Virus record (IMG/VR): IMGVR_UViG_2585427781_000002
Reading direction: 5' to 3' (one strand)
Length of the DNA stretch: 40,067 nucleotides
DNA from: a virus
Taxonomy: Duplodnaviria > Heunggongvirae > Uroviricota > Caudoviricetes
The translations under genes and the position numbers were made by a program. Positions 22,881-27,641 of the stretch are shown here, piece by piece. The notes under the pieces are model-generated. The model did not search any database. It was given only the letters and a program-made list of their open reading frames with translations, and was not told the DNA's origin. How positions within the stretch are numbered: the first letter of the stretch is position 1; every line of letters starts with the position of its first letter.

Positions 22881-23093
22881 TCAAAGTGCCACAACATGAA
22901 CAGCCGCGGGGCCTTTAGGTCCGTTCTCAATACCAAATTCGACTTCCTGATTCTCAGTTAACGTTTTGAAATCGTTGCTCTGAATAGCTGAGAAATGGAC
23001 AAACACATCTTTGCTACCATCTTTCGGCGTGATGAAACCAAAACCTTTTTCAGGGTTAAACCATTTCACTAAACCAGTCATTTTGTTAGACAT
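22881..23093 (-). CDS. cspI: cold shock protein, CspA family (CspI-like)
   Basis: [70 protein letters not shown]; canonical RNP motifs, 70 aa; long AT-rich upstream region consistent with a csp 5' UTR. Confidence 0.9.
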
Positions 23094-23456
23094 CATTATT
23101 ACCTTTTGAAGAAGTTAGCCCTTGGGCAGAATGGTCCGAAAAAAAATATCAGAGAGAAAAACCAACAAGGAAATCTCAAGAGGTACAAATAATAAAATTA
23201 TAACAATGACTGCTTCAGATAATTTTGTAACAAACCAGAACACCATTAACGCATGATTAACCAACCATAGCAAGGATTACTTTTGTAAAGAAAAACACAC
23301 GAATGAAACAATAGCTTTATTTATTAATAAAACGTGTCATTCTGTCTAATGACCTTTTATCTTACCCTTAAGATTTCAAGGATTTTGACTCATGGAAGAG
23401 TCCTTTTTATTTAAATTTCACATTCAGCGCTAAAAATAATCCGATTTAATATTAAT

Positions 23457-24484
<1,028 letters not shown>

Positions 24485-24611
24485 GGATATTTATCAGGAT
24501 TTATCAGTTTCTAATCTCTAGATATGTTAAGCACTCAGCCCGTCAGTGGTGGATACTGGCGTGTGTAATAAAGGGGGGATGGCTGATTACCTCTGATAAG
24601 GGAATGTAACT

Positions 24612-24908
24612 ATGAACGGTATAGATCCATTCAAACCAATCAGTAAGCAACTTGATGTGGTATTACCACAACTGACAAAACACAACGACCTTCTGGATAA
24701 AGTGTTGCCTTTTTATATTGCTGTTACCGCAAAATTATCAGGTAAAACTCGAGAAGAGGTTCTCAAATATAACATGCTGGCTTTAGAAACAATTTTTGGC
24801 TCAGAAAAAGCGGGAAAATCACCCAAAGAGCTGGCAGAATCTCAATTTGCTTATATGACAAATATAAGAGTATCCGAAATCTTTGATAAGCTACCAGACA
24901 TTGAATAA
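24612..24908 (+). CDS. hypothetical protein encoded antisense to the lysis cassette
   Basis: 98-aa ORF with AAGGGA RBS-like sequence upstream of the ATG; no signal peptide; AT-rich; convergent with the 72-aa gene. Confidence 0.5.
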   Translation: MNGIDPFKPISKQLDVVLPQLTKHNDLLDKVLPFYIAVTAKLSGKTREEVLKYNMLALETIFGSEKAGKSPKELAESQFAYMTNIRVSEIFDKLPDIE

Positions 24909-24932
24909 TTTCTAAGCGGCAGTAATGCCGCT

Positions 24933-25151
24933 TTATATTTTTTCAGCCAAATCTCTCAAGAACTGTTTGGCATGTTTTACCGCAGTAACTTCATAATAAT
25001 CCAAACCAGCTCCTTCAAGTCGCTCAAGGTTGATGTTCAGATCAAAAATTTCACCGGCAAAACGTTCTTTGTCCTGTAACGTTAAGATTACCGTAACTTT
25101 ATTCTCAAAATTGCGGGTCCCTTTCACAATCAGTTCATAGTTTTTAGTCAT
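24933..25151 (-). CDS. hypothetical small protein between holin and endolysin
   Basis: 72-aa ORF starting 5 nt downstream of the holin stop; same strand as the lysis genes. Confidence 0.5.
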   Translation of the reverse strand: MTKNYELIVKGTRNFENKVTVILTLQDKERFAGEIFDLNINLERLEGAGLDYYEVTAVKHAKQFLRDLAEKI

Positions 25152-25155
25152 TGTC

Positions 25156-25371
25156 TTACTCTCCTCTCGCAGCCTTACGCCTGTCTTCTTTAATCTTGAA
25201 ATAAAGGTTTGTCAGATACGTCAGCATGCCAAATACCAGACTACCCAATACACCTATTGCCGCCCACTGTGAGGGTGTGACTTTATCGAGCAACTGTAAA
25301 AACCAGTAGCCAGCACTGCCTGCAGAGGTGCTGTAGGCGATGCCCGTTGTTAACTTATCCATGGATTTCAT
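25156..25371 (-). CDS. pinholin, phage-21 S type
   Basis: From ATG 25371 with GGAGGTGA RBS: [71 protein letters not shown], 71 aa, with the dual-start motif (M1..M4) and two transmembrane segments, matching S21 as remembered. Confidence 0.9.
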
Positions 25372-25561: not shown

Positions 25562-26284
25562 CTAAGAAAATCTTGATAAATATTGGTGCGGAGGCACACC
25601 AAAATATCTTCTAAAAACACTTACAAAATATGATGCATTGTCATACCCGCATATTCCCGCCACCTTGCCGACAGTATGGTTACTGTAGATCAATAATCTT
25701 TGCGCCATCATCATTCGTTCTTCAAGAATTAATTTACTAAACGATAATCCTTCGTCTTTTAATTTTCTTTTTAACAAACTCTCGCTCATATATAATCTTG
25801 AAGATATATCACAAAGTCTCCATGACGCTGAGATATCCGAGTGAATAATAGCCTTAACTTTACAACCTAAGCTATTAAGACTTCCGAACAAAAAACTTTG
25901 CACTATTTTCTCTGAAGATAAGACAGCAAGACATGCAAGTGATATTTGATTTCTAACTACATCCACGGTTTTGCTATCACAATTCAAGCATGCAACCAAG
26001 TTCTTTAACAATGAAAAATCTTCACATTCTACTATCAAGTATGACGGATAAAACCTTCTTACAGAAAAAGGTGAGAGTGTGTAGTTTTTAAAGAAATCAT
26101 TAACTGTTTTCTCCTCAACATCTACGATCATTAGATGATCTGTATTTGACGAAAAAAGATCTTTTAAATTGTATTCAATGAGGACAGCATTTCCTTTTTT
26201 AAACAAAATATCTTCTTTACCAATTCGGACACCAAACGAGTTCAACACCAAAATGATAGAACATATGTATGGCATATTATCCAC
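25562..26284 (-). CDS. AraC/XylS-family transcriptional regulator
   Basis: 240-aa ORF with a C-terminal AraC-type helix-turn-helix (...GICGYDNASYFVSVFRRYFGVPPHQY); low-GC gene with a 400-bp AT-rich upstream region. Confidence 0.85.
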   Translation of the reverse strand: MDNMPYICSIILVLNSFGVRIGKEDILFKKGNAVLIEYNLKDLFSSNTDHLMIVDVEEKTVNDFFKNYTLSPFSVRRFYPSYLIVECEDFSLLKNLVACLNCDSKTVDVVRNQISLACLAVLSSEKIVQSFLFGSLNSLGCKVKAIIHSDISASWRLCDISSRLYMSESLLKRKLKDEGLSFSKLILEERMMMAQRLLIYSNHTVGKVAGICGYDNASYFVSVFRRYFGVPPHQYLSRFS

Positions 26285-26681: not shown

Positions 26682-27641
26682 TTAATTCACCATCAGTCTT
26701 AGAGCCAGTTCTTCCGGATAGGGATCGAAGTAATTCTGTGTAAGCAAGTAATCATTAGGATACTCACCCAGATAATGCTTCAGCAGAGTCAACGGCGCAA
26801 GAAGAGGCAATGTGCCAAAGCGATAGTTAAGTATAACCTCGCTCAACTCTTTACGCTGGCGTGTACTTAAGTAATTACTAAAATACCCCTGTATATGCAT
26901 CAGCACATTCGTGTGATTTTTACGTGATGCTGGTTTTCTGAGAATCGCCATCAGATTATCACGATACACCTCAAAGTATGATTCAAGGTCCGCCCACTCG
27001 TGTATTGCAGCCACAAATGGTCCCATATCTTTATAGCCTGCCTGGCTATGCGCCAACAACTGAAGCTTATAACGACTATGAAAAGCTAATAACTCTCTTC
27101 TTGATAATTTCTCCTTGTAAAGGTGATTGAGCTCATGCAAAGCAAAAACTCTTTCAATAAAATTCTCACGAAGCACTGGATCATGTAATCGCCCATCCTC
27201 TTCAACCGGTAGCCAGGAAAACTTTTCCATCAAAGTGCTCGTAAATAGTCCCACTCCATCTTTACGACCTCGATTACCATTTTCATCATAGACACGCACG
27301 CGCTCCATGCCACAGCTGGGAGATTTAGCACAAACCACAAACCCCGATACATCCTTTAATTTGTCCATATAAGAACGACTAAACTCTGTCATTCTCTCTG
27401 TCACATCCTCATTCTGGTCGTGGCTGAAACACATCCGTATATTTCCTTGCTTCGAGCGCACAAGTCGTAGAGCAGGACGCGGAACTGGCAGCCCTATAGC
27501 CATTTCCGGACATACTGGTCTGAATGTTACCCATTCCACTAATTTGTCCATTAAAAAGTCATCTCTTTTGTGACCACCATCAAAACGAACAGCAGAACCG
27601 CCCAAACAACCGCTGATCCCAATCACAGGTTTTTTTATCAT
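26682..27641 (-). CDS. DUF523 (TudS-like thiouracil desulfidase family) fused to DUF1722
   Basis: 319-aa ORF; N-terminal GISGCLGG...FDGG with conserved cysteines (..RPVCPE.., ..CAKSPSCGMERV..) typical of DUF523, and a helical C-terminal half consistent with DUF1722. Confidence 0.65.
   Translation of the reverse strand: MIKKPVIGISGCLGGSAVRFDGGHKRDDFLMDKLVEWVTFRPVCPEMAIGLPVPRPALRLVRSKQGNIRMCFSHDQNEDVTERMTEFSRSYMDKLKDVSGFVVCAKSPSCGMERVRVYDENGNRGRKDGVGLFTSTLMEKFSWLPVEEDGRLHDPVLRENFIERVFALHELNHLYKEKLSRRELLAFHSRYKLQLLAHSQAGYKDMGPFVAAIHEWADLESYFEVYRDNLMAILRKPASRKNHTNVLMHIQGYFSNYLSTRQRKELSEVILNYRFGTLPLLAPLTLLKHYLGEYPNDYLLTQNYFDPYPEELALRLMVN

Follow-up and report, generated by a model that had tools for sequence, protein, structure and literature searches.

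Two convergent small genes in the lysis operon of a Qin-like prophage: a candidate mobile moron module behind a conserved structured leader

Why would two small convergent genes, one of them antisense, lie between the holin and the endolysin of a lambdoid prophage? The question is raised by a Qin-like lambdoid prophage of E. coli, IMG/VR record IMGVR_UViG_2585427781_000002, whose whole stretch of 40,067 nucleotides (nt) is called the window here. The open reading frame (ORF) ORF98 (24612-24908, + strand, starting with ATG, 98 amino acids (aa)) runs antisense to the lysis operon, and ORF72 (24933-25151, − strand, starting with ATG, 72 aa) lies on the late-operon strand. The two are convergent, and their 3' ends are separated by 24 nt. 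This pair had been pointed out in an initial annotation of the DNA, and its coordinates, strands and lengths proved exact. We consider the pair, on balance, to be a mobile two-gene moron module in a late (lysis) operon, in which ORF98 would be an effector expressed in the lysogen and ORF72 its late-expressed partner. It is very likely that ORF98 is an independently transcribed moron cassette. Functional coupling of the two genes is evenly poised, and a role specifically in defence and counter-defence is tentative and somewhat doubtful. Recent work has shown that small antisense genes within the late operons of phages are defence genes that come with their own self-immunity (Tab/anti-Tab and Tai/Ati). 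The present locus provides an E. coli example of an antisense late-operon gene with two tiny uncharacterised proteins, found also in the sequenced phage Evi. The initial annotation contained neither the identity of ORF72, nor the mobility of the pair, nor the conserved structured leader before ORF98. What is added here is that ORF72 is the N-terminal domain of YdfR, and that a structured promoter-leader cassette outside Rfam is widely shared. Locus names of the type L001 and protein names of the type P0017 are labels of this analysis.

Set against the late operon, ORF98 would form a separate unit with a promoter box, a 77-nt leader, a Shine-Dalgarno sequence, a coding sequence and an intrinsic terminator. 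A putative −10 hexamer, TATGTT (24523-24528, + strand), predicts a transcription start at about 24534-24536. The promoter and leader together make up a cassette, and 46 non-redundant cassettes were aligned with TCAGCCC as the anchor. A TAnnnT box is found at −12 to −7 from this anchor, with T at −12 and A at −11 each in 44 of the 46 and T at −7 in 42. An inverted repeat, CAGGGT-N14-ACCCTG, extends across the −35 region and spacer of the cassette promoter (−40 to −15 from TCAGCCC). It is clear in L176, L177, L086 and L092, degenerate in the window (24495-24520), and looks like an operator for a DNA-binding protein. Further upstream comes a conserved TACTGT. The TACTGT...CAG region is not claimed as a LexA box, given its spacing of 9 nt instead of 10. 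An element of about 85 nt upstream of the gene is common to all ORF98 loci.

The downstream signals complete the unit. The Shine-Dalgarno-like AAGGGA (24598-24603, + strand) is located 8 nt before the ATG of ORF98, and the initial annotation had rightly noted that this gene has its own ribosome-binding-site-like sequence. The intrinsic terminator of the ORF98 transcript (24914-24943, + strand) consists of the stem-loop AAGCGGCAGTAATGCCGCTT followed by TATATTTTTT. Its hairpin (24914-24933) has 8 base pairs, five of them GC, and is rich in guanine plus cytosine (G+C). The terminator is weak in the opposite direction, where the − strand stem is followed by AGAAATTATT with no T-run. An equivalent G+C hairpin stands between cargo and partner in all ORF98 loci. 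Because ORF98 appears to be a self-contained transcription unit, it could be made from a repressed prophage. ORF72, in turn, starts 4 nt past the stop codon of the holin gene, and because it is packed so closely behind that gene, it would be made only with the Q-dependent late transcript.

The 5' leader of ORF98 (24535-24611, + strand, 77 nt, with the ATG at 24612) is structured. Helix P1 pairs TCAGCC (24535-24540) with GGCTGA (24581-24586). P2 is a hairpin (24541-24548 with 24554-24561) followed by a spacer, and P3, which crosses P1, pairs GGGGG (24574-24578) with CCTCT (24590-24594). The leader between GGGGG and CCUCU reads AUGGCUGAUUA and contains GGCUGA (24581-24586). In 45 distinct sequences, P2 is 95.8% paired, with five of its eight pairs changed on both sides, and P3 is 79.5% paired, with a CG/AU exchange at the outer pair. 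P1 is 99.3% complementary and nearly invariant; its three 5'-side substitutions all keep pairing by wobble. The T-G wobbles place the leader structure on the + strand. Since P1 and P3 cross, the leader would form a pseudoknot or adopt alternative states. Nested folds computed from the predicted +1 are dominated by P1 and P2, with the Shine-Dalgarno sequence largely base-paired to CCUCU (unpaired probability 0.15 in the window). Invariant motifs in loops or single strands suggest a trans-acting factor. A covariance model built from ORF98 leaders, named R1, scores 76 bits at the window leader, which is the only copy within the window. An Rfam cmscan of 24300-25300 with E up to 10 gave no match on 24535-24611 and only chance-level matches elsewhere. 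In the 2H10 leader, the −10 box and the P2 hairpin are kept, and TCAGCC and GGCTGA are lost together.

Both ORFs are real genes under purifying selection. The ratio of nonsynonymous to synonymous substitution rates (dN/dS) is 0.08-0.09 for ORF98 and 0.16-0.45 for ORF72. The homology search of both peptides that the initial annotation had called for placed ORF72 in DUF1327/YdfR and ORF98 in a very rare uncharacterised family. ORF98 (WP_001013163) belongs to phrog_25324, which has no named PHROG function. The AlphaFold2 model has four helices, with a predicted local distance difference test score (pLDDT) of 86, and the protein is predicted to be soluble and all-helical with no membrane segment. 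Full-length homologues have 97-101 aa and are 57-85% identical. Only 16 clusters among 5.8 billion proteins belong to the family, and a profile search of 1.84 billion representatives gave six matches, one of which, a plant repeat protein, is regarded as chance. No relative of ORF98 was found in Pfam, PADLOC or PDB, nor any informative fold match, and a PDB sequence search with the ORF98 and ORF72 profiles returned nothing below E 0.05. A viral contig (L029:4001-4294) has a stop codon inside ORF98, a sign of occasional decay of the module.

ORF72 matches PF07041 (DUF1327) with 92.3 bits (gathering cut-off 25), and its residues 1-72 align with profile positions 1-72 of 93. Judged by this match, ORF72 is a short DUF1327/YdfR form with the N-terminal β3-α domain only. 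Its AlphaFold2 model shows three strands and a C-terminal helix (pLDDT 81), and no membrane segment is predicted. Full-length YdfR of about 103 aa consists of the N-domain and a C-terminal tail, whereas ORF72 ends at profile position 72. YdfR of K-12 (b1555, in Qin, PF07041) is, like ORF72, placed after an S21-type holin. In comparison with it, ORF72 is without the C-terminal 30 residues and has diverged in its last 24, and K-12 Qin, unlike the window, has no antisense cassette beside ydfR. Residues 1-72 of K-12 YdfR, exactly the domain kept by ORF72, form an autonomous domain that is sufficient to bind the N-terminal (catalytic) half of RNase E, as well as RNase G, in two-hybrid assays (PMC13232886, 2026). 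In the same study, Rne(1-598) and DNase-resistant nucleic acid were co-purified with full-length K-12 YdfR (PMC13232886). The pair thus gives the widespread DUF1327/YdfR family, recently reported to bind RNase E, a concrete genetic context.

How did the pair come to lie in this operon? The ORF98 region is extra DNA at a conserved junction. In the related mEp460, mEp460_ev081 and K-12 Qin, the order is holin, full-length ydfR (103-104 aa) and endolysin, with no insert between. The G+C content is 36-40% over 24600-25100, against 46-53% in the endolysin and holin flanks. The left junction of the module (24489-24507, + strand) has the sequence ATTTATCAGGATTTATCAG, in which the word ATTTATCAG is duplicated almost in tandem. 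Within it is the conserved TATCAGGRT box of the cassette (24492-24500), which is found at −43 to −35 in most of the 46 cassettes. Cassette-free mEp460 has GGATATTTATCAGGAT directly before the endolysin ATG, and in the window this is partly duplicated at 24489-24507; CATGGATATTTATCAGGATTTATC is common to the window, Evi, Perceval and 2H10. The right boundary lies inside ORF72, whose residues 1-47 are identical to ordinary ydfR alleles and whose last 24 residues are a diverged allele that accompanies the ORF98 module. This switch after residue 47 places a mosaic junction near 25007. The module probably entered by recombination within the resident ydfR on one side and at the TATCAGGAT word beside the endolysin on the other. 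The same ydfR/endolysin junction carries a different 79-aa antisense ORF next to full-length ydfR in Perceval (L006:1082-1408), and yet another cargo next to a 183-aa DUF1327 protein in 2H10 (L005:1590-1930). Because different antisense cargos are found there, the junction is a hot spot for cassettes. The window's own version is not confined to one genome. Of 5426 complete E. coli genomes, 57 carry a 671-bp stretch of it at 100% identity, and RefSeq annotates both ORFs there (WP_001013163 and a DUF1327 protein); phage Evi has the same stretch at 96% identity, again with both ORFs annotated.

The pair moves as well as being conserved. Wherever an ORF98 homologue occurs, it runs antisense to the late genes of a phage. 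Six or more lysis and tail junctions are occupied in this way, and the loci come from Serratia, Cronobacter, E. coli, Escherichia sp., Buttiauxella, Yersinia and metagenomic contigs. The pair is positioned between holin and endolysin (the window, Evi and Buttiauxella), before the holin, after the lysis genes (Cronobacter), or at the tail H/M, M/L and I/J junctions. L050 apart, each ORF98 faces a small convergent gene on the late strand, whose end is no more than about 30 nt from the terminator hairpin. This partner is of two kinds. One is a 72-73-aa DUF1327 protein, present in four lineages that are 30-65% identical and including a tail-operon position. The other is a 93-99-aa family, named P94 here. 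Comparison of P94 with DUF1327 by hhalign gave no significant profile similarity, and homology is not claimed.

The cassette itself is not limited to ORF98. A pattern scan of viral contigs gave mostly chance matches, and only copies confirmed by the covariance model were used. With R1 as the filter, 40 further copies were found at 32-88 bits. Including the window copy (24492-24611), the cassette loci are L054-L173, L176 (2498-2582) and L177 (2500-2582). None of the ORFs behind the other 40 cassettes is ORF98; they represent about 15 unrelated small families from enterobacterial phage contigs, among them DUF1883, a retropepsin-like protein, a zinc ribbon, and several helical and several beta-rich families. 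Most copies run antisense to the genes around them. Roughly three quarters are next to a small convergent ORF on the late strand, which comes from about five families: DUF1327, P94, an MTLEERIEALE-type coiled coil that is sometimes fused to P94 or DUF1327, and others.

Two of the cassettes precede genes that had already been annotated as morons. HK022 gp23 'srb' (NC_002166), annotated as a moron between tail genes I and J, carries the cassette with an R1 score of 87 bits. ES18 gp25 (NC_006949), a possible moron by its annotation, is located between M and L, where terminators are annotated too, and carries it with 77 bits. Its convergent neighbour, ES18 gp24, belongs to DUF1327 and shares 29% identity with ORF72 (E 3e-8). 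As in the window, gp23/gp22 of HK022 and gp25/gp24 of ES18 combine an antisense gene, a convergent small late-strand ORF and flanking terminators. The two cargo proteins differ from ORF98 in being unrelated to it and in lying in the tail operon, not the lysis cassette. Since HK022 gp23 and ES18 gp25 carry the same cassette, this kind of element is already known as a moron. The initial annotation had compared the antisense gene to a moron, and the comparison is borne out by the extra DNA, the lower G+C content, the terminator, the conserved −10 box and leader, the annotated moron cassettes and the constant antisense orientation. In the searchable literature, no description of the shared promoter-leader cassette was found. 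K-12 Qin has no leader copy by R1, so K-12 transcript maps are not usable for the leader. A regulatory role of the cassette, if it has one, would account for morons being active in lysogens and silent in lytic growth, and the cassette would be a sequence handle for finding new accessory and defence genes of prophages.

Several features of the wider cassette set were observed in passing. Cassettes in tail operons have a strong intrinsic terminator on the late-gene strand at the outer (promoter) side, immediately before the next tail gene (L011:4850-4900, L012, L031, L048, L176, L177:2427-2448 and others); the window, in its lysis context, has none. Fusions of partner domains occur at L018:4314-4859, L124:3693-4094 and in the partner ORF of L136, and join an MTQEQRIEELE-type coiled coil to P94 or a DUF1327 N-domain to the coiled coil. 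The partner coiled coil weakly resembles SlyX (Pfam E 0.04), and SlyX has been reported to bind the N-terminal half of RNase E. A zinc-ribbon cargo follows the R1 leader in L119. K-12 ynfU (L175:10806-10976), a gene for a small zinc-binding protein, is antisense to late genes just upstream of essQ and has no R1 leader. Many cassettes (L086, L092, L065, L093, L128, L129 and L144) are flanked by two conserved genes on the late strand, one of about 200 aa and the other of about 440-490 aa. The longer gene has a weak, sub-threshold match to glycosyltransferase-2, and the site looks like a further insertion hot spot.

What might such a module do? In lambda, bor and lom are accessory genes in or beside the late genes that have their own signals, are expressed in the prophage and encode envelope proteins. 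ORF98 resembles them in its placement. They are, however, single genes for envelope proteins with no R1 leader, whereas ORF98 is predicted to be a soluble helical protein and has a paired late gene. The moron concept, in the sense of Juhala et al. (2000), has been reviewed (PMC3594210). Salmonella lysogens offer a case in which a moron lying antisense within the lytic genes is transcribed from a promoter of its own (PMC7067206).

The closest counterpart in geometry is found in the Pseudomonas phage JBD26. Its late gene gp30, for anti-Tab (83 aa), is convergent with the antisense, self-promoted gp31, for Tab (83 aa), between two late genes (PMC10884400). Tab blocks the tail assembly of invading phages, and anti-Tab binds Tab while the prophage itself is in its lytic cycle (PMC10884400). 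Two essential late genes enclose the pair, which is itself dispensable and counts as a moron (PMC10884400). Comparison of the window with L179 (gp29-gp32) shows identical geometry, with a small late-strand gene behind a late gene and convergent with a small antisense gene. The two systems also differ. The host clade is another one. The JBD26 pair keeps to one place, between the terminase genes, whereas the ORF98 pair is mobile among lysis and tail junctions. No structured leader has been reported for tab. The defence, the tape-measure target and the binding of Tab by anti-Tab have been demonstrated in JBD26, whereas for the ORF98 pair defence and binding are conjecture.

A second counterpart is TaiEcA/AtiEcA of phi80. 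There, tai is antisense within the Q operon, it is made in the lysogen, its level falls upon expression of Q, and ati is in the late operon (PMC11364771). As in the window, an antisense gene, in phi80 one for defence, stands against a Q-dependent late operon next to a small late gene, in phi80 one for counter-defence. In contrast to the convergent ORF98 and ORF72, tai and ati are divergent with overlapping 5' ends, and Tai has 204 aa. R1 gave a sub-threshold score of 17.7 bits (E 0.013) in the phi80 locus, at 1860-1949, away from tai.

Because its geometry is that of Tab/anti-Tab and close to that of Tai/Ati, the pair is most likely, by this analogy, a lysogen-expressed effector, anti-phage or host-modulating, with a late partner. 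In such a module, ORF98 would be on in the lysogen and ORF72 in the lytic cycle. The late transcript would run antisense through ORF98 and its leader. During lytic growth, ORF98 would then be opposed by transcriptional collision and antisense RNA, and possibly by ORF72.

Several results weigh against this proposal. BLASTP gave no alignment between Tab/anti-Tab and ORF98/ORF72, and hhalign gave a probability of 0.2%; there was likewise no alignment with TaiEcA/AtiEcA, and PADLOC had no match for ORF98 or ORF72. A generic sigma-70 promoter scan made no + strand call here, and with TTATCA as the −35 element the match is a weak 8 of 12; since the scan does not call the TATGTT box, the promoter of ORF98 is one that we infer. 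The homologue in L050 has no small partner, and full-length ydfR without any cassette is common, in about 2000 genomes against 57. The roughly 15 cargo families abut only about five partner families, and ORF98 itself uses two dissimilar ones. As few partners serve many cargos, an antidote specific to each cargo fits poorly, and a partner tied to the architecture fits better.

Could there be no functional pair at all? A single-gene moron may have landed in the 3' end of a resident ydfR, leaving ORF72 as a truncated remnant. We regard this as unlikely. It would account for the coverage of only positions 1-72 of the 93-position profile by ORF72, ordinary YdfR having 103-104 aa, and for the solitary ORF98 of L050. 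The other cargos beside full-length ydfR (Perceval) or the 183-aa DUF1327 protein (2H10) at the same junction also speak for it. So does the end of ORF72, where the stop codon falls within the terminator T-run, the final codons are encoded by that run, and frameshift variants occur. One of these, P0017 (L014:791-1090, L015:675-974), is a 99-aa ORF72 variant that reads through the hairpin by a length change in the A/T run of the terminator and is, like the stop codon in L029, a sign that the module occasionally decays. It was considered as a full-length ancestor of ORF72 and rejected, being a frameshift at the terminator A-run. A remnant, however, would not be expected to recur at the same length of 72-73 aa with ORF98 in four lineages of 30-65% identity, including tail sites without a resident ydfR. 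The dN/dS of ORF72, the autonomous RNase E- and RNase G-binding activity of the corresponding K-12 domain (PMC13232886), and the movement of the diverged last 24 codons with the module also argue against it. Chance truncation of ydfR is unlikely to be the whole story, because the pair of ORF98 and partner recurs at many positions and in many lineages.

A broader proposal shifts the weight from the proteins to the RNA, and is rather unlikely in our estimate. The leader (TCAGCCC, the covarying hairpin, GGAUGGCUGAUUA in the second helix, CCUCU and the Shine-Dalgarno sequence) and the promoter box would constitute an undescribed, exchangeable riboregulatory cassette. This would drive at least 15 unrelated small genes antisense in the late operons of enterobacterial lambdoid phages. 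P1 and P3, mutually exclusive or pseudoknotted, would gate the Shine-Dalgarno sequence, and the late-strand neighbours would act on the leader RNA or on RNase E, shutting the cargo off at the lytic switch.

The related explanation for the partners alone seems quite improbable. The DUF1327 N-domain, P94 and the coiled coils would not be antidotes but factors directed at RNA or RNase E and tied to the antisense architecture. They might, for example, control the sense/antisense duplex or the fate of the leader when late transcription crosses the cassette. The binding of K-12 YdfR to the RNase E half and RNase G and its co-purification with Rne(1-598) and nucleic acid (PMC13232886) agree with this, as do the few partner families for many unrelated cargos and the invariant leader motifs. 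On the other side, over-expression of ydfR altered few transcripts (PMC13232886), P94 is not significantly similar to DUF1327, a small partner is absent from many cassettes, and ydfR is abundant without a cassette. Because K-12 YdfR residues 1-72 bind the RNase E half and RNase G (PMC13232886), we leave an RNA- or RNase-directed role for the partners open.

The initial annotation had also offered two functional guesses, a toxin-antitoxin module and a lysis-timing module, and neither fared well. A toxin-antitoxin (addiction) pair is very improbable, even though two small adjacent genes on a mobile element invite the idea. Defence/counter-defence pairs do act like addiction modules, and in JBD26 anti-Tab cannot be deleted alone (PMC10884400). 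ORF98 and ORF72, however, are convergent and in different transcription units, unlike the co-directional, co-transcribed genes of type II operons, and there is no antisense small RNA gene of the type I architecture. DUF1327 is the only Pfam or PADLOC family in the pair, with no toxin or antitoxin family among the matches. In an over-expression growth experiment, arrest was attributed to YegJ and not to YdfR (PMC13232886). ORF98 also exists without the partner, and ydfR without ORF98. A lysis-timing accessory of the pinholin/SAR-endolysin system, suggested by the location between holin and endolysin and by the frequency of DUF1327 genes at that spot, is highly unlikely: a lysis-specific role is excluded by the pair's presence elsewhere, at tail junctions (H/M, M/L, I/J) and outside lysis cassettes, before the holin or after the lysis genes, a soluble product lacking any membrane segment is predicted for each gene, and sister phages lyse without the module.

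The genes around the candidate moron module are those expected from the initial annotation, which had named a pinholin and a signal-arrest-release (SAR) endolysin as its flanks. The S21-type pinholin gene (25156-25371, − strand) matches PF04971, 'Bacteriophage P21 holin S', with 116 bits. Its real start is an MKSM dual start at 25371/25362, which gives 71/68 aa, and the gene is annotated as essD, of 71 aa, in the identical E. coli locus. The SAR-type endolysin gene (23951-24484, − strand, 177 aa) matches PF00959 Phage_lysozyme and phrog_7 endolysin. Its N-terminus has a Gly/Ala-rich, SAR-like segment, from which SAR behaviour would be expected, and the E-x8-D-x5-T triad can be read off the sequence. 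Rz with an embedded Rz1 (23457-23954) follows the endolysin gene.

Further along the − strand, Rz/Rz1 are closely followed downstream, as they are in K-12 Qin, by a gene for a CspB/CspI-like cold-shock protein (22881-23096). An IS3 within Rz sets the identical E. coli locus L002 apart from the window. Upstream of the holin, the window encodes an AraC-family regulator (25562-26284, − strand) and a YbgA/DUF1722 protein (26682-27641, − strand). In the matching E. coli locus, the AraC-family and YbgA/DUF1722 genes separate the Q antiterminator from the holin, and the opposite strand carries a lipocalin gene. The ORF98 pair of an unrelated metagenomic phage (L041) likewise has a YbgA-like gene next to it.

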